A stretch of DNA of 38,567 bases from a bacterium (GCA_029555085.1 JAKPTO010000015.1:1-38567); one strand, 5' to 3'; positions 3,015 through 35,788 are shown, counted from the first letter of the stretch. A program made the numbers and translations. Notes: generated by a model not told the origin, from the letters alone.

Positions 3015-4655
3015 TTATTGCTTAATTTGTTTTTTTGATACACCAAAAAACCATATATATTTTTCCATTTTATCTCTCACAAACAACATTAAAAATGTTC
3101 TTGTTATGGTTATTGCTGAAAACATTGATAATACAATACCTATACCAAGTGTTATTGCAAATCCCTTTATCATACTAGAACCTAAATACAAAAGTATTAA
3201 ACAAGTAATAAGAGAAGAAACATTTGAATCCCTAATTGATGGCCAGGAACGCTTGAATCCTTCTTGTACCGCGAAAGTTAAATTTTTACCAGCCCTAATT
3301 TCTTCTTTTGTTCTTTCAAGAATTAAAACATTTGCATCTACAGCCATACCAAAAGACACTATGAAACCAGTAATTCCGGATAATGTTAATGTTATTGGCC
3401 ACATTTCAAATATCATACCAATTAGAACTCCATATATTGCAAGAGCAATTACAGATATAAATCCTAAAAATCTATAAGCTAGTATCATAAAAATTGCAAG
3501 AACAATAAGACCATAAAGTCCAGCCATTAAACTTTGATTTAAAGATTCCTTTCCAAGTGTTGCTCCAACTGTTTGCTGACTAACTAATTTTATTGGAACT
3601 GGTAGAGCGCCAGCGTTTAATCTTTGTGATAATTGTTTTGCTTCTGTTATTGTGAAATTTCCAGAAATTACAGCTTGCCCCTGACTGATTTTTTCATTTA
3701 CCATTGGTGCTGTTATTATTTCTCCATCAAGAACTATAGCTACTCTTTTTCCAACATTTCTTTCTGTTATTTCAGTGAAAAGTTGCGCGCCCTCGGTGTT
3801 GAATTCTAAAGCTACTTGAGCTTGTCCTGTTGTATTGTCAAAAGTAACATTTGAAGTTTTGAGATGTTTTCCGGAAAGTTGCGTATTAATCCAGCTTGTA
3901 TCCATAGCAGGATTTTGTTTTAAAAACAATATATGTTGGGATTTAACTTCTCTATCACTGTCAGAACCACGCTCCTCTATTTTTTTGATTATATGATAAC
4001 CAAATTGACTTTCAACAACTTGGTTGTACACTTTTCCATTTTGTAATTTATTAAAAATAACATCGGCATATGTAGGATCTAGCAAATCTTGTTTGTAAAA
4101 ATCAACTATTCCGCCATTATCTTTTGATCCTGGATCCTCTGATAATTCTGAGGCTAATTTTGCAAAATCCTCACCAGCTAAAACTTTTTTTAATGTATCT
4201 TCCGCTTTTGATTTTGCCTGCGAATTCAATTGATCCATTTCTTCTGGAGCGAGTGTTTGCCCTTGTTCTTTAAATTCTAATAATGGAGTTTCTCCTATTT
4301 TTTGTATTGCCTCCTGAACATCAAAAACACCAGCAAGCTCTACTATTATTTTATCATCTCCACTTGTTTGAATAACTGGTTCTGCTACTCCAAATGCATT
4401 AACTCTTCTTTCTATTACATCTCTTGCACCTTCAAGAGCAGAGGCTCTATCAGCTGTTTCTATATTAGAAAAATCAGCTTGGTAAACTAAATGCGCACCG
4501 CCCTGTAAATCAAGCCCTAAAAGAGGTTTAAATTTATTAAAAAAAGAACTTCCAGGGACCCAACTTGGAACATTTGGACATACAACTAAAGTAGCAAAAA
4601 TTGTTAAAATAATTATAAGCAAGAAACTTAATCTTACTTTTGATATCTGCGACAT
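3015..4655 (-). CDS. secD: Protein translocase subunit SecD with inserted parvulin/PpiC-type PPIase domain
   Basis: SecD motifs LGLDLQGG, IERRVNAFGVAEP, LNAGALPVP and GMAVDANVLILER; parvulin motifs EDFAKLASELSEDPGSKDNGG and VESQFGYHIIK lie inside P1. Confidence 0.95.
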   Translation of the reverse strand: MSQISKVRLSFLLIIILTIFATLVVCPNVPSWVPGSSFFNKFKPLLGLDLQGGAHLVYQADFSNIETADRASALEGARDVIERRVNAFGVAEPVIQTSGDDKIIVELAGVFDVQEAIQKIGETPLLEFKEQGQTLAPEEMDQLNSQAKSKAEDTLKKVLAGEDFAKLASELSEDPGSKDNGGIVDFYKQDLLDPTYADVIFNKLQNGKVYNQVVESQFGYHIIKKIEERGSDSDREVKSQHILFLKQNPAMDTSWINTQLSGKHLKTSNVTFDNTTGQAQVALEFNTEGAQLFTEITERNVGKRVAIVLDGEIITAPMVNEKISQGQAVISGNFTITEAKQLSQRLNAGALPVPIKLVSQQTVGATLGKESLNQSLMAGLYGLIVLAIFMILAYRFLGFISVIALAIYGVLIGMIFEMWPITLTLSGITGFIVSFGMAVDANVLILERTKEEIRAGKNLTFAVQEGFKRSWPSIRDSNVSSLITCLILLYLGSSMIKGFAITLGIGIVLSMFSAITITRTFLMLFVRDKMEKYIWFFGVSKKQIKQ

Positions 4656-8841: not shown

Positions 8842-10212
8842 ATGTCAAATAAATCTAATAAAAAATTAATAATCATTTTAGAGGGAATTTTATCTATTTC
8901 TGCGCTTATTTTTATATCTTTTTTTAATTTAAATTTAAGCGTAGCTCTGGGAATTATAATAATTGCAATACTTATTCCTCTTTTTATAATATTCCCATAT
9001 TATTCTCTTTTGCTTCTACTAATAGTTAGAAATTCTACTGATCTATATGCTGAAAATGTTTTTATTGATTTTTATTTTGTATCTTTAAACTTTTCTTCCA
9101 TACTTGGAATAATGATAATTCTATGGGCAATTTATGTAATTTTAAAAGAAAATATTGACATAAAAAAAATTCCACTTTCTATACCGTGGATTTTATTTTT
9201 ATTTTGTGCGTCCTTAAGTTTAATTTATTCTATTGATAGGGCTAGTACTTTAAAAAATTTAACAAAATTATTCAACTTTTATTTTATTTATATAATTTTT
9301 TATCATTATTTTCAAAACGCTCAAAATAAACATAAAACAAGAAAATATTTTATTTTATCCATTTTATTTTCGTTTTTCATTCCTTTAATATTTGGTTTGT
9401 ATCAATTTATTTTTAATAAGGGATATGTCGGTCCGGAAGGATTAAATAGAGTTTACGGAACTTTTACTCACCCAAATATTTTTTCATTCACATTGCTGTT
9501 TCTCTTATTTATCTTAGTAATTTTGTATACACAAAATTATTATAAAAAAAGAAAAAAAGAAAATAAATTAATATTATGGCTTATTTTTATAACAATATTC
9601 ACATTGATAAATACTTTTACAAGAAGTGCCTGGCTTGGAGCCCTTGCATTTATTTTTCTATGGATGTTTTTATATAAAAAAAATAAAATTTTTAGTGTTC
9701 TATATTGTGTCTCCATTATTGCATTTACTTTATTTTTAGTAATAAATTATACTCCGCTTAAATATTATGATTTTAATAACATTGATTTTGTTAGAAGATT
9801 AACAACTTCTGATACTTCTATTTCTTCTACGCAATGGAGAATGCTCTCCTGGAGACAAATGTCAAGCTATGTTTATAAATCTCCAATCATTGGATTTGGG
9901 CTGGGTACATATAGATTATTAAGAGAAAAACAAATATATTCTAGTGTCTATGAATATCCGTACTATGCCCACAATGATTACTACCAAACACTAATTGAAC
10001 TTGGTGTAATTGGTTTATTTTTTTATTGTAATTTATTATTGCAAACATTTCGCAATATTTATAAAAAATATTTACAAAAAAAAGACAAAACAATTCTTTT
10101 ATCTTTATTTGGAATAATTATTATTTTTTCAATAGGATTTGTTGATAATATTTTAACATCAACTTCCCTACAATGGCTCATTTGGGCCTATATTGCGTTT
10201 TTACTTACCTAA
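8842..10212 (+). CDS. O-antigen ligase / Wzy-like polymerase family membrane protein
   Basis: Many TM helices; RVYGTFTHPN, TFTRSAWLG, PIIGFGLG and AHNDYYQTLIELGVIG motifs. Confidence 0.92.
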   Translation: MSNKSNKKLIIILEGILSISALIFISFFNLNLSVALGIIIIAILIPLFIIFPYYSLLLLLIVRNSTDLYAENVFIDFYFVSLNFSSILGIMIILWAIYVILKENIDIKKIPLSIPWILFLFCASLSLIYSIDRASTLKNLTKLFNFYFIYIIFYHYFQNAQNKHKTRKYFILSILFSFFIPLIFGLYQFIFNKGYVGPEGLNRVYGTFTHPNIFSFTLLFLLFILVILYTQNYYKKRKKENKLILWLIFITIFTLINTFTRSAWLGALAFIFLWMFLYKKNKIFSVLYCVSIIAFTLFLVINYTPLKYYDFNNIDFVRRLTTSDTSISSTQWRMLSWRQMSSYVYKSPIIGFGLGTYRLLREKQIYSSVYEYPYYAHNDYYQTLIELGVIGLFFYCNLLLQTFRNIYKKYLQKKDKTILLSLFGIIIIFSIGFVDNILTSTSLQWLIWAYIAFLLT

Positions 10213-10253
10213 ATTAAAAGGAGGCAGAAAATTTGCTCCATCTCCTACCTCCT
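10213..10253 (-). terminator. Intrinsic terminator of the 10269-10799 gene
   Basis: Minus strand aggaggtaggag...tttctgcctcct followed by tttaattt; sits between convergent genes. Confidence 0.65.
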
Positions 10254-10268
10254 AAGAGGTTTTTATAC

Positions 10269-10799
10269 CTATTTGATATTGCCCGCTGGCAATATCCCTT
10301 TTGAATCATCGATCCGGAATCGAAATTCCAGATTTTCCCTTGTTACTTTGGGATCCTGTTTCGGATCATATCCGAAAGCAGAGAACCTATCAACAAAACC
10401 GTAACCGGTTTTTCCGTCCCTTGTTAGGATCTCTACGGCAAAATAGCCATATCCATCCTGACTCAGAACTTCATTTTTCTTTACTCTAGCAACTAGAGCA
10501 TTGTAGCGTAGCTCCATTCCCTTGCTAGAGTTGTTGTAATGTAGTGTAGCTTTTTGAATATCTGCTACACTAAAGGGTTTAAAATCTTTGGTTAGCCCTG
10601 GACCTACCAGGTAAAAATCCTTTGGATTATTAGCCTGGCGTCTAATGACGAACCAGCCCTCAAATTCAGAGCTAAGGCTATAGCTGATTACTAGCTCATC
10701 GCCTTCCTCGAGAACGCTAAAACGCTCCCTGCTGTCTACTTGTGCATAGGTAGCAGACAACAAGCACACAATGATGATCATCATAATGATCTTTTTCAT
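10269..10799 (-). CDS. Hypothetical secreted protein (GC-rich cassette gene 4)
   Basis: Signal peptide MKKIIMMIIIVCLLSATYA; GGAGG SD; has its own promoter and terminator; no family recognised. Confidence 0.8.
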   Translation of the reverse strand: MKKIIMMIIIVCLLSATYAQVDSRERFSVLEEGDELVISYSLSSEFEGWFVIRRQANNPKDFYLVGPGLTKDFKPFSVADIQKATLHYNNSSKGMELRYNALVARVKKNEVLSQDGYGYFAVEILTRDGKTGYGFVDRFSAFGYDPKQDPKVTRENLEFRFRIDDSKGILPAGNIK

Positions 10800-10889
10800 A
10801 ATTCCTCCTGGAATTTTTTATTTTTTTTGGATTTTTATTTTAGAATGAAATCACTACACTCTACAAATAAAAACCCTCTCGGTGCTTAT

Positions 10890-10917
10890 ATAATACTCCA
10901 TATAAAAAATTTGTCAA
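10890..10917 (-). promoter_or_regulatory. Sigma70-type promoter for the 10269-10799 gene
   Basis: TTGACA-N16-TATTAT on the minus strand. Confidence 0.5.
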
Positions 10918-11000
10918 GTGCTTGTATATGCACACATTATTGGTCTAAATTATATTAAAATGTATTGTTTTCTTAAAAAAGATAAATTTTTTGTATAAAT

Positions 11001-11040
11001 TAAAAGAGGGTGGAAACGAATTTTCTCGCTTCCACCCTTT
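11001..11040 (-). terminator. Intrinsic terminator ending the three-gene cassette operon
   Basis: Minus strand agggtggaagcga-gaaaat-tcgtttccaccct then cttttaattt, just after the stop at 11046. Confidence 0.8.
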
Positions 11041-11045
11041 GAAGT

Positions 11046-11591
11046 TTAGTAGGTGACCGGTGTTATTAGCACCGATCCTCTTGTTTTCGAAAGATTAAAT
11101 TCGAAATGTGACTTGCCCGGGTCACGACTGTAATTGACTGTTCGGTCAATCACATACTGCGACCAGTCACACAGAGAATAGGCCGGGGCTGTAACCAGCT
11201 TTCCTGCCTTCTCATATGTGACGAGGCATTCCCACGTCAAATCGTGGGGGCCTTCCACGAGATTCGCTATGGGCACCTCAGAATAAAATCCCTGGGCGCC
11301 TGGCGCATCGGCGTGATAAACACAGGTCCAGACTTTATCTAGATAAAGTCTGGGCTCCTCTATTTTTATTATCCGATACACCGGTTTTCCATCCGGTGTG
11401 CGCCCAGCCATAGGTCCAACCAGGTTGTCTCCGACTGCCACGAAGTGGCACTGGAGGTCTGGTTGGGTTGAATAGTATACCAGCAACATGCTGGAATCCT
11501 CCGCCTTGGGACCGATTTCGATCCTGACGGGTTTTGCGAGTATAGCAGTAATGGCCATCAGTGCGATGGCAAAAATTAGCATTTTCTTCAT
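11046..11591 (-). CDS. Hypothetical secreted protein (GC-rich cassette gene 3)
   Basis: Signal peptide MKKMLIFAIALMAITAILA; SD AGGAGG; 4 Cys. Confidence 0.8.
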   Translation of the reverse strand: MKKMLIFAIALMAITAILAKPVRIEIGPKAEDSSMLLVYYSTQPDLQCHFVAVGDNLVGPMAGRTPDGKPVYRIIKIEEPRLYLDKVWTCVYHADAPGAQGFYSEVPIANLVEGPHDLTWECLVTYEKAGKLVTAPAYSLCDWSQYVIDRTVNYSRDPGKSHFEFNLSKTRGSVLITPVTY

Positions 11592-11612
11592 TTTTCCTCC
11601 TATGCTATGGGG

Positions 11613-12665
11613 TTATTGTGGTCCAATACCAGCCCATTGACCTCGAAGGTCCACGGGCTCGATGTTACTGGTTATCCCATTTTCTATTTTGGCGGTAAAT
11701 AATTCCTCGCCATAATAGAGATATTGATTTATCAATTCCACTCCTCCGACGGTGATACCAAAAATTTTTGGATTTCCGGGATCATCAAAGGAGAAGATTT
11801 TCAGATTAAAGACTTGGTTAGGGAATAATCTAAGAGTCGTCTCCCAACGATTGTATGTTGAGTTCCAACTCATTTTTTCCCTACAGAACTGGGATCCAGA
11901 CCAGGCAATTTTACATTGCATATCCGCTGTGCACGGCTCTGTAAAATTGATAATCTGGTCTTGGGGGATTGGCAGAAGTTGCACTCCATCCGCAGTATAA
12001 CCACCAACACCATCCCAGTAACAATTTACCTTCACAAGTCCACTTTGGGGGATACCTAATGTAAATAGTTCCCCTGCAAAGTTTTTTCCGAAAGTATAAC
12101 ACGGAATATTTACTTTCGGTCTGTCTTGAGGGAAAACCCCATCTGGTGATTGAGACAGGAGCATTCCCGTGCAATTTAACGTTTCTAACACATTGCCAGA
12201 AGCGTCATATCTTTTTAACACGGGAGCACCCCAAAGCACTTCTAAATCCCCATTGGGTTTTTCTAGAGCAAATCTTACTCGGTTTACACTATCTTCATCC
12301 TCCGGAATGCTCCGGATCAACACCATCGTAGAAAATGAATTAAATGGTGTTGTTGGACCAACAGTCCCCAATAATATTTTTTCCCCAGTATCATTGGGGT
12401 GTAATCTTACAGGTCCACTTTGGGGATCCTGAAAGAATCCACTCCCCGCGATAACCCATACCTTGTCTCCGTTTTGGGGATTCTTGGCGGGGTCTTTAGA
12501 GGGCTCGGGATCTGATGTGTGAAGCTTATAATAGCTTCCACTAGGATCAATAAAATCCCCATCGGTTATAACTTCCGGTCCCAAGATGTTGTCTGCAACC
12601 GAATTTCTGTCGCAACCAACAATCATAAGGGAGATTAGTATCACCACGAAAAAAAAGTTTTTCAT
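11613..12665 (-). CDS. Hypothetical lipoprotein (GC-rich cassette gene 2)
   Basis: MKNFFFVVILISLMIVG-C lipobox-type signal; SD AAGGAG; Pro/Gly-rich mature part that looks beta-rich. Confidence 0.8.
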   Translation of the reverse strand: MKNFFFVVILISLMIVGCDRNSVADNILGPEVITDGDFIDPSGSYYKLHTSDPEPSKDPAKNPQNGDKVWVIAGSGFFQDPQSGPVRLHPNDTGEKILLGTVGPTTPFNSFSTMVLIRSIPEDEDSVNRVRFALEKPNGDLEVLWGAPVLKRYDASGNVLETLNCTGMLLSQSPDGVFPQDRPKVNIPCYTFGKNFAGELFTLGIPQSGLVKVNCYWDGVGGYTADGVQLLPIPQDQIINFTEPCTADMQCKIAWSGSQFCREKMSWNSTYNRWETTLRLFPNQVFNLKIFSFDDPGNPKIFGITVGGVELINQYLYYGEELFTAKIENGITSNIEPVDLRGQWAGIGPQ

Positions 12666-12687
12666 TTTATCTCCTTTTTAATGTAAT

Positions 12688-14235
12688 CTAATGTAAATAC
12701 CTACTTGGCATGTTCCAAAACAATGTCAACTTACATTCCATGAGATCGTCACTGCGATCTTCCTGGTCCTCAAGTTGTTCACAAGTTTTGGTATAGCCAA
12801 GAATACCCTCTATCATCCACCTTCCTTTCGGCCTGTAGAAGGCACCAACCCTATAGTCACACCTTCTAAACCTCGACCACTCATTTTGGTCATCCCTATT
12901 TTGAATGTGAAAAATTTCTCTATGACTTACAAAAAGAAGCCAATTTTCACTAAATGAACGCCCGACTCTCGCATCAAATGAATAATGCTCGAACCCAGGA
13001 GCTCTCAGAGTATCCACCATCTCAGATGGTGTTAGTTGATACCCTCCAGATGCAAACATATACCACCTTTTAGGCTCAAGTTTTAATGAACCCGTGACGG
13101 CATATGTCCTGGGATTTTTGTTAAGGACGGTGTTGGCAAACACCTGGAAATGGTTGTTGCCATCCATACTGAGTTTTTCATACCCAGCATAGATGCCGTC
13201 CTCTTTGGGTATTGGGATGTAGCTCATTGAGAATCTTTCCCAAATCCTCTCATCTGTGAGTTCGTAATACTCGCATTTTAGATGAGCGAATTCGCGATAA
13301 TCTCGTCTCCATCCCATTTCAAAGAAATTTCTCCGAATGGGTTGCCACTGGACACCTAGGGTGGTGTGCCAGTCATAGGGACCATCTTGGTAGCCCCCCT
13401 CAAAACCGGCAATGATGGCAAAGTTATCTTTCAGACACACTTTACCACCAATAGATACTATTCCGGAGTAAATTCCCTTATCAGTGGTGTTATAATCCAC
13501 TAGAGTATATCCATTTGTTCCCAGAACCCTAAAAAATGGTTCCCCAAATAAATCAGTGGCCCCAGAGACCCACCCCCAAACGTGGGCACACAGTCTTCTC
13601 TCTATCACTTCTACAAAAATCGTATCAGTGACTGTTTGATAGACCGGATAGGGCCTATCAACATAGACTGTGTCGTGCACAACAACCTCATAAGGTTCTG
13701 GCACGTATTTGATTTCAATTGAGGGTTCGGGCGGAGGTTTGGGCAAGTCCAGTTCCTTCCAACAATGGTTGTTGCACTGAACTTTTCCGTTTAAATTGTT
13801 CTGAAACCAATAGCTACAGAACAACTTTCCAGTCAGTGAGTTGTAGGCCTTTACCAGCCAGGCACTGGCTGGCTTTACATTAAAATTTTCTCCGATTGTC
13901 ACTTGTGCCAATCGGACAATGATATTAGGGGAGTACTTTCCTCCATAGCATTCCCCGTCAAACCTCTCTCCGGATGTCACAACGACCTTTTCCTTAATGT
14001 CGTTGTTGAAATTGGAGATGAGACTATCCGCACAGTCCGGAGCTATTACTCCAACCGCAACCAATAATCTCATGTGATCTTCAAACTTCTCGAGGCAACT
14101 TACGTCGCCTCCCATCTTTACCCATGTCCATGGCCTACCGCGATGGACTTCCACGTTTTTCCCTTTGTATTTCAGGGCAAAAAGTCCAGAAAAACAAAAA
14201 AGGAAAACTACGAAGACGAAAATTATCTTTTTCAT
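12688..14235 (-). CDS. Hypothetical secreted protein with Cys-rich N-domain, Pro/DTVYV stalk and beta-barrel-like C-terminal half (GC-rich cassette gene 1)
   Basis: Signal peptide; PKPPPEP linker; VVVHDTVYV..VTDTIFVEV; amphipathic strands such as FDARVGRSF, DYRVGAFYRP, WMIEGILGY and CKLTLFW; SD GGAGG. The barrel assignment is inference. Confidence 0.75.
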   Translation of the reverse strand: MKKIIFVFVVFLFCFSGLFALKYKGKNVEVHRGRPWTWVKMGGDVSCLEKFEDHMRLLVAVGVIAPDCADSLISNFNNDIKEKVVVTSGERFDGECYGGKYSPNIIVRLAQVTIGENFNVKPASAWLVKAYNSLTGKLFCSYWFQNNLNGKVQCNNHCWKELDLPKPPPEPSIEIKYVPEPYEVVVHDTVYVDRPYPVYQTVTDTIFVEVIERRLCAHVWGWVSGATDLFGEPFFRVLGTNGYTLVDYNTTDKGIYSGIVSIGGKVCLKDNFAIIAGFEGGYQDGPYDWHTTLGVQWQPIRRNFFEMGWRRDYREFAHLKCEYYELTDERIWERFSMSYIPIPKEDGIYAGYEKLSMDGNNHFQVFANTVLNKNPRTYAVTGSLKLEPKRWYMFASGGYQLTPSEMVDTLRAPGFEHYSFDARVGRSFSENWLLFVSHREIFHIQNRDDQNEWSRFRRCDYRVGAFYRPKGRWMIEGILGYTKTCEQLEDQEDRSDDLMECKLTLFWNMPSRYLH

Positions 14236-14313
14236 CTTTTAATCCTCCATATTTTTTATTTTTTTTAATGTGCTATTTTTTATCTAAAACGCTTACGCGT
14301 AATATTTTTAATT

Positions 14314-15156
14314 TTATTTACCTAATAATCTTCTTCTTAATTCTTCAAAATCTATATTGTCTGAAATATTTCTATTTTGCGAATTATTGTTAATATTATT
14401 ATTTGCTGAATTTTCTGTATTATTTTCTTGAGCTTCTGCTTGATTAAAAACTAATTTAATTTTTTGATGTGTTTTGGCTTTTTTATTACTAGAATTAAAG
14501 AAGTTATTTAAACTAGCATCAAAATTTGTATATTTATTTGGAAACAATACCATAAATGAAATATTAAAAAACACGGCTAAAATAAAACTCGTAAAAATAT
14601 TTACAAACCAATTTGGTCTCACTGGATAATTTGATGTAACTGGAGTATCAATAATTTGTAATTTAATTAAATCTCCCGCGCCATGATAATCTTTGTGTGT
14701 TTGAAAAAGTGTATTTATAATATTGTTTAAATGTTTTTCTGCTTCAAAAGCTGATTCATTATATACTTTTATTTGTACTATTGATGTATTTGGAATAATT
14801 TTTACATCAACTTGCCTTTTCCAATGATTTCTTTTTTGTTTTTCACTTGCATAAAATTTAAAAGGAGTGTCTGGATATTTTTCTATAACTTGATTTCTGA
14901 ATGATGATGATAAAATTGCATCGCTTATATTTTTAGATATGGCCTCAGATGCTTTACTAGCAATGTATGCATCCATTTGCATTTGTTGATTCTGAATTAT
15001 TAAAATTTTTGCAGTTGATGAGTATTCTATTTTTTGAAAAACTGTTAATATACAAGATATCAATATAAAAATTAATACAAAGAAAACAAAAGCAAACTTA
15101 TTCTGTAATGAAAAGTTTAAAACGCTTTCTGATTTTGTTGTTATTTTTTCTTTCAT
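14314..15156 (-). CDS. Wzz/YveK-type polysaccharide chain-length determinant
   Basis: N-terminal TM, YSSTAKILI, C-terminal IIDTP..PVRPN + TM. Confidence 0.85.
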   Translation of the reverse strand: MKEKITTKSESVLNFSLQNKFAFVFFVLIFILISCILTVFQKIEYSSTAKILIIQNQQMQMDAYIASKASEAISKNISDAILSSSFRNQVIEKYPDTPFKFYASEKQKRNHWKRQVDVKIIPNTSIVQIKVYNESAFEAEKHLNNIINTLFQTHKDYHGAGDLIKLQIIDTPVTSNYPVRPNWFVNIFTSFILAVFFNISFMVLFPNKYTNFDASLNNFFNSSNKKAKTHQKIKLVFNQAEAQENNTENSANNNINNNSQNRNISDNIDFEELRRRLLGK

Positions 15157-15157
15157 A

Positions 15158-16909
15158 TTATTTTATTGTTATTTCTTTATCACTATATAAACTAAAATTT
15201 GAATAATAATCTAATATATTTAATTCATAATTTACTTTTTCAACCCCTGGTTGTTTTTGTATAAATAATTTATAACTACCATTTTCTAAATATTTCTTCA
15301 TTCCATTCGGTAATTTATATTTAAATGTAAGGGTTTTTGAATGTTTTGGTTCTATTGATATAAATGTTCCAAAAATTGTTTTCCCATATAAATTATATAC
15401 ATCTGTTTGACCTGGTTTTTCTGTTCTATCTGTTTCCATAGAGCCCACTGTTTCTATTAATTCTGAGCCCATTGGTACTAAAATTCTTGTATATGTTCTG
15501 TATCTTGTTGAATTCCAGGAAAATGTTCCATTGTGGGTGTATGTAATATCTACTTGCGCTATCAAATCCTCGTTTTCTTTTTTAATATTATATTTTACAC
15601 TTCTATCAATAAATTGATCTGATTTATAACTTGCTAAATTACTATCTACTACCATTATATAATCAGAATTTTTATTTTTTATTTCTCCTGCCCAGTTATT
15701 CTGAATTAATATATTTTCAATTTCAGAATCCGTACTATAAACAAGAATATTTTTATTTTGCAAATTTTCATCAATTATATCTAGAATTTTAGAATAATCT
15801 GATAAGCTTCTGTTTTTCAATCCATCTAAAATTGACTGCGCTAAAGATTTTATAATGTCTTTTCTATCCCAGTGTGAAATATTTCTCTCTTTGTAATATA
15901 ATTCAACTGCTTTTTGTAAATCATCAGTAAAATTTTCTTTTTCAAATATCACACCTTCAATATTTTGTATTCCTATTACGCCCAATAGTTCTCCAACAAC
16001 ATCTGGTGTTAATGCAATCACTCCATCAATATTTCCCATATCTCCAGATTCAAGTTTATATAAATCAATACAATTTTTCATAGATTCTGGAAAACCAGGT
16101 TCAAAATTACAATCTCTCATATACCACTCTGGTGTTTCGAGATATTTTGCAATCGGAGCTGGTATGTCATTTTTTAACTTTCCTATTGCTTGGCTATCCA
16201 AATGGTATATGTCATCAATGAATATATTTTTAATTTTTGTATTTTCTATTGTTAAGATTCCGTATGTTCCTATAAATCCACCTGTTGGGCGAAGTTCTGT
16301 ATTGTTTTGAAATAATAATAAATATTTTTTTTCAGCATTTATTCCAGCTATATCATAAATGTACTCATTGAATGGTTCTAAAAATTTTAATGCTTTTGAT
16401 ATAAAATTTATATTCTCTGATAACTTATCATTGTCAACGCCCAAAACACTCTTTATAATATTTAAATTTATTGCTAAATTTTCAAAGCTAGTTCTAAAAT
16501 TTTTTAATTGATCTTTGTTTTTTAATAAATAAAGTAAAATATCATTTCTTGAAGCGTCATTACTAAGTGAAGATAAAATATTATACGATCCACTAGTAAT
16601 AACTTTAGCGTCTTTTACTATATTTTCAATTGCTGTAAATTTTGAATTTACTATTGGAATAAACTTAAATATTTTCAATAACTTCAAATTTTTTTCAATA
16701 ACAGCTATATCACCATTTGTTTGGTTTAATAAAATTTTCACAGAATTATAGTCATCATTTTTAGCGTATTCTTGTATTTTTGTTAGGTTGTTTTTTATCA
16801 ACATCCCACGAGAATAAACTGTTTTTATGGGCAAAACTACGAAATAGATACTAAAAATGATCAAAAATAATACTATTACTATAATTACTAGTTTTGTATT
16901 TTTTTTCAT
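15158..16909 (-). CDS. DUF4012 domain membrane-anchored protein
   Basis: YLLLFQNNTELRPTGGFIGTYG, RDCNFEPGFP, IDGVIALTP and YKLFIQKQPG motifs. Confidence 0.85.
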   Translation of the reverse strand: MKKNTKLVIIVIVLFLIIFSIYFVVLPIKTVYSRGMLIKNNLTKIQEYAKNDDYNSVKILLNQTNGDIAVIEKNLKLLKIFKFIPIVNSKFTAIENIVKDAKVITSGSYNILSSLSNDASRNDILLYLLKNKDQLKNFRTSFENLAINLNIIKSVLGVDNDKLSENINFISKALKFLEPFNEYIYDIAGINAEKKYLLLFQNNTELRPTGGFIGTYGILTIENTKIKNIFIDDIYHLDSQAIGKLKNDIPAPIAKYLETPEWYMRDCNFEPGFPESMKNCIDLYKLESGDMGNIDGVIALTPDVVGELLGVIGIQNIEGVIFEKENFTDDLQKAVELYYKERNISHWDRKDIIKSLAQSILDGLKNRSLSDYSKILDIIDENLQNKNILVYSTDSEIENILIQNNWAGEIKNKNSDYIMVVDSNLASYKSDQFIDRSVKYNIKKENEDLIAQVDITYTHNGTFSWNSTRYRTYTRILVPMGSELIETVGSMETDRTEKPGQTDVYNLYGKTIFGTFISIEPKHSKTLTFKYKLPNGMKKYLENGSYKLFIQKQPGVEKVNYELNILDYYSNFSLYSDKEITIK

Positions 16910-35714: not shown

Positions 35715-35788
35715 TGGCTCCGGGACATGGATTTGAACCACGATTACTAGGGCCAGAACCTAGCGTCCTACCATTAGACGATCCCGGA
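35715..35788 (-). tRNA. tRNA-Gln(CTG)
   Basis: Acceptor stem TCCGGGA/TCCCGGA, anticodon arm CTAGG-TTCTGGC-CCTAG, T arm CGTGG-TTCAAAT-CCATG, discriminator G, encoded CCA. Confidence 0.96.

Follow-up and report, generated by a model that had tools for sequence, protein, structure and literature searches.

A window of 38,567 nt (GCA_029555085.1 JAKPTO010000015.1:1-38567), which is the entire contig C31 of a 1,024,725-bp assembly (i.e. G000; 53 contigs, GC 0.29, completeness 99.4%), was analysed for a cassette of four genes, designated A to D, at positions 10213-14260. The genome resembles those of the Candidate Phyla Radiation (CPR, or Patescibacteria) in size and composition (i.e. 1.02 Mb, GC 0.29) and a syntenic relative is labelled Patescibacteria. 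There is about an even chance that the cassette is a lineage-specific, fast-diversifying envelope or surface operon within the surface-glycan locus (i.e. DUF4012-Wzz ... Wzy_C-glycosyltransferase) of one Patescibacteria family. All four open reading frames (ORFs) lie on the minus strand: gene A (12688-14235, 515 aa), gene B (11613-12665, 350 aa), which encodes a lipoprotein candidate, gene C (11046-11591, 181 aa), whose product is small, predicted to be secreted and beta-rich, and gene D (10269-10799, 176 aa), a paralog of C. ORF calls and inspection of the starts agreed with an initial annotation of this DNA in that the genes are co-oriented, begin with MKK or MKN followed by a hydrophobic stretch, as expected of signal peptides, and have GGAG-type ribosome-binding sites upstream of all four starts. 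Spacers of 22 nt (A-B) and 21 nt (B-C) and a terminator-like hairpin (11007-11038, minus strand; 14-pair stem, then a T-run) define an A-B-C operon. Gene D has a sigma-70-like promoter (TTGACA-16-TATTAT; 10890-10917, minus strand), recognised as a consensus match only (11 of 12 positions), and a terminator-like hairpin at its 3' end (10219-10253, minus strand), again with a 14-pair stem and a T-run. The arrangement first proposed, of a three-gene operon with a terminator and a fourth gene with its own promoter and terminator, was therefore supported.

The cassette is placed, as originally described, between wzz and an O-antigen ligase gene. Upstream is a Wzz-like chain-length-determinant gene (14314-15156, minus strand), whose match to PF02706 (23.9 bits) is slightly under the cut-off of 25.5, and then a DUF4012 gene (15158-16909, minus strand; PF13196, 83 bits). 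Downstream, and convergent with the cassette, is a Wzy_C (i.e. O-antigen ligase/polymerase-type) gene (8842-10212, plus strand; PF04932, 79.9 bits). Together with two GT4 genes and two radical-SAM genes, these flanks make the neighbourhood one of glycan biosynthesis. In the accessible part of PMC6744442, DUF4012 is associated with capsule and exopolysaccharide (CPS/EPS) clusters. In line with the initial annotation, no integrase was present among the window ORFs listed and a repeat search detected no repeats around the cassette beyond AT-rich low complexity.

Synteny was read at nine loci, i.e. the window, L001-L003, L009 and L015-L017 (together eight genomes) and the metagenome contig L022. 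The order DUF4012-Wzz-cassette-Wzy_C was unchanged at all nine, with Wzy_C being cut by the contig end in L009. The Wzz-like protein kept its position in every locus and exhibited 76-80% identity in congeners, and the Wzy_C protein exhibited 71-85%. Relatives of A were found in three more species-level genomes of the window's genus. A profile of A matched 11 of the 14 genomes of one Patescibacteria family, spread over five genera, and none of the 72 genomes of the order's six other families. The B and C families were present in 9 and 10 of the 14 family genomes, respectively, always adjoining A and never without it. Co-occurrence in other CPR genomes, on which the idea of a genuine system depended, was thereby found. 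Only 18 of 1.84 billion representative proteins matched the A profile (11 at E ≤ 1e-30), no relatives of A were found on viral contigs, and metagenome contigs yielded one extra locus, from the same lineage. Gene content differed between loci (i.e. A, B, C and D; A, B and C; or A and C) and G008 has another gene set. The slot of that genome (L018, i.e. G008:C21, 7784-10248) holds a GC-elevated set of genes for a CBM_4_9 plus Por_Secre_tail protein of 275 aa, a beta-rich signal-peptide protein of 249 aa without a family and a coiled-coil protein of 287 aa. All sampled words of positions 9800-14700 were present in 14 DNA runs from 12 studies, each flagged as a possible source. Six RNA-seq runs contained 17-60% of these words, a measure of word content and not of read mapping, which hints at transcription of the cassette. 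The record containing L001 is titled as an uncultured Gammaproteobacteria metagenome-assembled genome; its contig has a GC of 0.30 and its flanks are syntenic with and 74-85% identical to those of the window, and the label looks wrong.

Cassette proteins are far more divergent than their neighbours, with identities of 31-58% within the genus as compared to 67-86% for flank proteins. Branches of the A tree were 3-5 times longer than those of a DUF4012+Wzz tree. The flanks place L009 and L015 as sisters, but A does not; forcing this grouping on A cost 37 log-likelihood units and was rejected by an approximately unbiased (AU) test (P = 2.6e-5), for which the group was named after the tree had been seen and branches were long. 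L022 was excluded from the trees of this test, being identical to L003 in these genes. Incongruence of the B gene was not significant (AU P values of 0.10 and 0.15). Fast divergence, variable content and tree conflict are the pattern of a surface locus subject to diversifying selection and occasional allele exchange.

The sharp shift in composition reported initially was confirmed, the hand counts of 35, 31, 16 and 11 GC per 60 nt all being exact. GC was 0.427 for 10213-14260 as compared to 0.281 in the remaining window, and ranged from 0.40 to 0.50 in 500-nt windows of the cassette versus 0.20-0.26 outside. GC was raised at all three codon positions of the cassette genes. At third positions (GC3), values were 0.39-0.54 for A-D versus 0.13-0.20 for eight neighbour genes and a genome median of 0.18, such that the four genes ranked 2nd, 4th, 6th and 14th of the 859 genome ORFs (non-overlapping, at least 100 aa). 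Cassette GC3 exceeded flank GC3 (0.11-0.23) at all nine loci. It was 0.33-0.57 in the window's genus, while two further genera had 0.32-0.48 and a fourth genus 0.20-0.32. Four-fold sites were then compared between genomes under identical amino acids. Third-base identity in the cassette was 0.26-0.38 within the genus, as compared to 0.24-0.26 predicted from composition, and was at or under expectation between genera. The flanks kept signal within the genus (0.39-0.72 versus an expected 0.34-0.52). GC at these sites was 0.31-0.51 within and 0.17-0.48 between genera for the cassette but 0.04-0.23 for the flanks. As the four-fold sites are saturated yet GC-rich, the composition is no leftover and is either maintained or repeatedly re-imported from a pool that the searches did not reveal. 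Spacers within and beside the cassette had low GC (D-C, 246 nt, 0.26; A-wzz, 0.21; B-A, 0.18), with a value of 0.26 for non-ORF DNA genome-wide. The step in composition falls at start and stop codons, such that only coding sequence is GC-rich.

Several causes of this composition were considered. The evidence leans towards a force on the coding sequence itself (i.e. rare-codon pacing of export or folding, or mRNA properties) over a regional mutational or conversion bias. A bias over the whole tract is weakened by the AT-rich internal spacers, which are short, contain a promoter and a terminator and so are not decisive. High expression was rejected as EF-Tu, EF-G, RpoB, RpoC and DnaK have a GC3 of 0.16-0.19. 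A general trait of secreted proteins was also rejected, since 98 signal-peptide ORFs, picked by a crude home-made heuristic, had a median GC3 of 0.184 versus 0.183 in 576 others (P = 0.49). The shift affects every amino acid and favours C and G endings alike, which makes translational selection for particular codons unlikely, and a relic of a single ancient transfer is rejected by saturation of the four-fold sites.

Other GC-rich segments occur in the genome. An IS605 OrfB/TnpB-type (Cas12f-like TNB) gene (C15:5262-6416; GC3 0.48) is among the GC3 outliers, and two ORFs of 387 aa have a GC3 of 0.39-0.40 (C38:6158-7321, with a weak radical-SAM match below the cut-off, and C45:4272-5435, without a family), indicating that the genome has a GC-richer fraction of mobile genes. 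Two signal-peptide proteins of ~200 aa that are 88% identical (C10:23-628 and C50:23-622, with a fragment at C37:1-105; GC3 0.41-0.42; no Pfam family) are encoded at contig starts and probably represent a gene that is repeated or varies between strains and so interrupts the assembly. These proteins were rejected as paralogs of C and D, the alignment being limited to signal peptides. Two mutually dissimilar stretches without long ORFs (C22:1-1500 and C48:~48000-49432; GC 0.43-0.47) had no Rfam match even at E ≤ 0.01 and may be unrecognised structured RNAs. The ORF with the highest GC3 (C22, 632-1060) was not supported as rRNA by Rfam. The final 141 nt of C48 are also present at the ends of five other contigs and resemble an assembly-graph node.

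The structure of protein A was modelled with AlphaFold2 from a shallow alignment of 7 rows (mean pLDDT 70). The model comprises a signal peptide, an alpha/beta N-domain (~25-165), a disordered Pro-rich linker (166-214) and a C-terminal barrel (~215-513). DSSP assigned 14 long antiparallel strands to residues 215-507 of the model, far longer than a bilayer span, and 10-residue blocks of the barrel had pLDDT values mostly of 73-90, with a lowest value of 66. Foldseek matched the model to OmpG (E 1e-5), PgaA, CymA and FadL with a probability of 1.0 (E 1e-5 to 1e-3 for the 14-strand channels), and also to porins. VIA-align, which is independent of Foldseek, gave the highest scores to FadL (Z 15.3; rmsd 4.5, 279 aligned) and a FadL homologue (15.1), followed by CymA (14.7), the PorV-like chains F/B of three Bacteroidota BAM (beta-barrel assembly machinery) complexes (14.0-14.2), OmpG (12.9) and PorV (6h3i_F; 12.5); all rows span ~215-513, and rows at most 1 Z apart are ties. 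The C-terminus of A is accordingly predicted by modelling to be an outer-membrane-type 14-strand beta-barrel, and the initial description of A as barrel-like stands as a prediction. No relationship was evident in sequence: A matched no Pfam family at E ≤ 0.1 and no NCBIfam family, the A profile matched no PDB sequence at E ≤ 1, and the best PHROGs match (phrog_4404, E 0.011) was below threshold. Aromatic residues make up 16.6% of the barrel and Gly 9%, and 9 of the 18 members of the A family have a terminal Phe. The most conserved motif of the family, QCNN, is in the N-domain, for which a search of the ESM atlas with residues 23-165 produced no usable match (TM ≤ 0.40). This domain is also located at the C-terminus of P0020 (428 aa), an unrelated membrane-anchored protein with a low-complexity Pro/Thr-rich region, and at G006:C13:363-875; its occurrence in the unrelated P0020 indicates a separable, independent extracellular module.

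Protein B has a lipobox (IVGC|D) whose cysteine, Cys18, is invariant in 7 homologs. Both Lgt (229 bits) and LspA (89 bits) are encoded in the genome, making lipidation of B possible and upholding its candidacy as a lipoprotein. An AlphaFold2 model of B (pLDDT 66) was all-beta with tandem Ig-like sandwiches, for which Foldseek returned only Fab-like matches with low TM. Residues ~208-333 showed a weak likeness to the starch/glycogen-binding modules CBM48/20/41 (VIA Z 5.5-7.3, under the trust level of the tool). Neither B nor C matched any Pfam or NCBIfam family, PHROGs gave nothing above threshold, and their profiles found nothing among PDB sequences at E < 0.1. For D, nothing was above threshold in Pfam, NCBIfam or PHROGs (DPCD, 12.7 bits versus a cut-off of 27). 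C produced no fold lead in the ESM atlas (scores of 0.78-0.80, i.e. chance level). C and D are paralogs linked via intermediates (L001_D versus L003_s, E 3.6e-9; L003_s versus C, E 3.7e-11), and an ortholog of D was present only in L001 (41% identity). The earlier proposals of small beta-rich subunits and of four proteins outside known families were consistent with these results, C and D being small, beta-rich, putatively secreted paralogs and no match to an unrelated family having emerged from Pfam, NCBIfam or PHROGs.

The initial annotation regarded a diderm-like module as unexpected in a CPR genome, and every diderm marker tested was indeed missing. Omp85/BamA (PF01103) was found neither in the window's genome nor in any of the 14 family genomes, in a search whose control was positive in 7 of 14 known genomes. 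Of the genes proposed for checking (i.e. bamA, lgt and lspA), only the latter two are present. LpxC, secretin and OMP_b-brl had no match in the genome, and TolC/OEP had only a 17-bit match, below the cut-off. The model thus makes A an orphan barrel of outer-membrane type, predicted in a lineage that lacks the usual machinery for producing such proteins. Five PF18962 (Por_Secre_tail) matches were detected in the genome (C39:1201-1371, C34:22596-22814, C30:59692-59934, C30:59198-59455 and C5:67383-67631), with another at L018:7784-8611. This family is present in 53 of the 86 genomes of the order, i.e. all 14 of A's family and 39 of the 72 in families without A. A role for A as the PorV partner of these proteins was not supported, since PF18962 is common in families without A.

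We infer the location, partnership and function of the cassette products. If the cassette is a surface operon, Sec would export all four proteins. A would serve as a pore or as an anchor within the outermost layer of the envelope, where its linker and N-domain would keep it off the cell. The lipid-anchored and possibly glycan-binding B would work with A, as would C and D, as exposed small subunits. Together the four proteins might export, anchor or display the glycan of the neighbouring genes, or contact a partner cell. Surface exposure would account for the rapid change of the proteins, for differences in gene content and for the exchange of alleles between lineages.

A number of observations weigh against this interpretation. 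Gene position is the only link of A-D to a glycan, and the carbohydrate-binding-like match of B is weak (Z at most 7.3). Three of the 14 family genomes (i.e. G008, G010 and G012) lack A, B and C, and B is absent in G003/L003/L022. The models of A and B (mean pLDDT 70 and 66, respectively) were built from shallow, 7-row alignments. The beta-signal of outer-membrane proteins is a C-terminal end in an aromatic residue such as Phe; A of the window has a non-aromatic end (...SRYLH), A and its two closest relatives ending in ...FWN(M/I)(P/S)S(R/K)YLH. A strand-alternation score for a lipid-facing hydrophobic stripe, a crude test, was no better for A than for B, the soluble control. Omp85, LpxC, secretin and OMP_b-brl are all missing from the genome, its OEP match lies below threshold, and we know of no membrane in CPR that would accommodate an outer-membrane-type barrel. 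CPR are described as being without PilQ, TonB systems and an outer membrane in the part of PMC6744442 that was available.

Two other explanations involve foreign DNA. A recent island, i.e. an outer-membrane module from a GC-richer diderm host or neighbour (e.g. of the FCB group) that is not yet ameliorated, would fit the uniform shift to C and G endings (GC3 0.39-0.54 versus a median of 0.18) as bulk foreign composition, and would fit both the pairing of an outer-membrane-type barrel with a lipoprotein and the somewhat raised GC3 (0.32-0.35) of the genome's proteins with a Por_Secre_tail, a sorting domain of type IX secretion system (T9SS) type. The probability of this explanation is nevertheless very small, as the slot is unchanged in 11 of 14 genomes and five genera, the 18 matches among 1.84 billion representatives include no relative beyond the family and viral contigs have none, four-fold sites are saturated between lineages that each keep a high GC, and the cassette spacers are AT-rich like the host, with no integrase or flanking repeats. 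The host-derived origin suggested in the initial annotation was thus not borne out: A has no relative outside one family, and an unchanged slot across five genera with saturated synonymous sites argues against recent import. An ancient transfer into the family ancestor is conceivable, but would not explain the present composition. A GC-rich foreign fragment joined into an AT-rich CPR contig by assembly or binning would also generate a sharp step at both cassette ends, and to this we attach next to no probability. Gene order is identical at nine loci, both in genomes that were assembled independently and in a metagenome contig, the change in composition falls on start and stop codons around AT-rich inner spacers, and the sampled words over both junctions were all found in the 14 DNA runs of 12 studies, each flagged as a possible source.

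CPR rely on hosts for lipids, and A could be part of a host-directed device. Released or presented by the epibiont, it would be either a FadL- or porin-like pore that enters a diderm host's outer membrane for uptake of lipids or nutrients, or an adhesin anchor, with B, C and D as accessory or host-binding proteins and an arms race driving divergence. This is distinctly unlikely. It would explain an outer-membrane-type barrel in a genome without its own outer-membrane machinery, a top fold match to the hydrophobic-substrate channel FadL (Z 15.3, tied within ~1 Z with CymA and PorV-like barrels) and the very fast evolution with incongruence of alleles between genera (AU P = 2.6e-5), but there is no evidence of secretion past Sec, no route is known for an exogenous barrel into a foreign outer membrane from outside, the gene neighbourhood indicates the cell's own surface glycan, and fold similarity does not show function. 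A chaperone-usher-like fibre or pilus system, with A as pore or platform, C and D as polymerising subunits and B as an Ig-like chaperone or anchor, has a small probability. In keeping with such a system, C and D are small, beta-rich and paralogous, D has a promoter of its own, and B consists of Ig-like sandwiches. Ushers are larger, plugged barrels; A has 14 strands and no plug, and A-D matched no pilin, usher or chaperone Pfam family. CPR do provide a precedent, i.e. the donor-strand Pam pili with membrane-anchored chaperones, but the Pam operon, in the accessible part of PMC13278184, is without a barrel and adjoins ATP synthase genes. A bolder reading, unlikely on balance although a serious possibility, is that a BAM-less monoderm-type CPR family builds and uses a true 14-strand barrel. 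The barrel would lie either in an outer layer of lipid or glycan that belongs to the cell and has so far escaped notice, or in a host's outer membrane, there serving as a pore for feeding or attachment. Selection on coding sequence (e.g. for rare codons that pace export and folding, or for mRNA protection) would hold the operon at about three times the genomic GC3. If true, the cassette would be a compositional island made by selection and not by transfer.

The usual view is that CPR/Patescibacteria have no outer membrane and that membrane proteins of beta-barrel type need BAM. A conserved, possibly transcribed and predicted outer-membrane-type barrel of tether-like layout in a BAM-less lineage bears on barrel assembly without Omp85, on the make-up of the CPR envelope or host-contact surface and on the diderm-to-monoderm transition in Terrabacteria. 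The equation of atypical GC with recent horizontal transfer fails for this cassette, a caution for island-calling methods. As a clean natural example of high GC kept in coding sequence only, in lineages with saturated synonymous sites, the locus could be used to study how selection or biased conversion shapes composition.

Two further features of the window were observed. In a SecD homolog (3015-4655, minus strand), which is followed by SecF (1991-2992), SecD_1st and the P1 head are separated by a PpiC-type peptidyl-prolyl isomerase (Rotamase) domain, so that an export motor is unusually fused with a folding catalyst. The sole Rfam match in the window was one tRNA gene (35718-35788, minus strand).

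Comparison with known systems places A closest, at the level of fold, to 14-strand channels of the FadL/CymA/OmpG/PorV type, which residues ~215-513 resemble in strand number (14 by DSSP). A has no sequence relation to the FadL/CymA/OmpG-type channels, adds an N-domain and a Pro-rich linker, has no recognised hatch or plug, and is encoded in a genome without BAM or detectable outer-membrane genes. FadL has an N-terminal hatch that plugs the barrel and a lateral opening. The VIA alignment to A spans residues 41-424 of FadL, and the N-domain of A is split from its barrel by a disordered linker, and by sequence A is not in the FadL/Toluene_X Pfam family (no Pfam family at E ≤ 0.1). For the T9SS protein PorV, the modelled likeness is again to a PorV-like 14-strand barrel at fold level only. 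In overall layout, the model of A shares with OmpM/Slp-type tethers of diderm Terrabacteria the order of N-domain, extended spacer and C-terminal barrel, and Veillonella OmpM1 was at rank 21 among the Foldseek matches of A. OmpM/SLH-porin tethers carry an SLH wall-binding domain, of which none was detected in A with Pfam, and have a coiled-coil spacer, as compared to the Pro-rich, disordered spacer of low pLDDT in A; moreover, A is limited to one family and is not ancestral to the phylum, and there is no outer membrane to tether. The accessible part of bioRxiv 10.1101/2021.05.31.446380 places CPR within Terrabacteria and describes the OmpM tether layout.

As a gene set, the cassette is like diderm modules for polysaccharide export or anchoring (i.e. 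PgaA-PgaB, AlgE-AlgK, PelB-PelC and BcsC) in that a barrel is combined with a lipoprotein and with small secreted proteins, all encoded within a glycan locus of the Wzz/Wzy type. GfcABCD of group 4 capsules likewise comprises a barrel, a lipoprotein and secreted proteins of small size. The export barrels of the PgaA/AlgE/PelB/BcsC type have 16-18 strands. PgaA, PelBC, BcsC and AlgE barrels did appear in the fold lists of A (Foldseek rank 3; VIA Z 9.7-10), but rank under the 14-strand channels, and the cassette organism has no outer membrane. Neither Pfam nor NCBIfam assigned A, B or C to the Wza/OPX, Gfc/Yjb, Pga or Alg export families. In enterobacteria and streptococci, O-antigen and capsule loci encode hypervariable surface antigens between conserved flanks and have atypical GC. 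The cassette shares with them the conserved flanks, a divergent middle, varying content, one tree conflict and an atypical composition; in contrast, its variable part consists of proteins and not of sugar-pathway enzymes, and its composition deviates to high GC, in coding sequence only, and persists past synonymous saturation. Within CPR, the closest published surface system is the Pam pilus, which differs from the cassette as far as the accessible part of PMC13278184 describes it. No description of an outer-membrane-type barrel or of such a cassette in CPR was found in the literature searched, the supplementary protein-family tables of PMC6744442 aside. What is new here is a surface module of known type, with a barrel and a lipoprotein, in an unexpected cellular and compositional setting.

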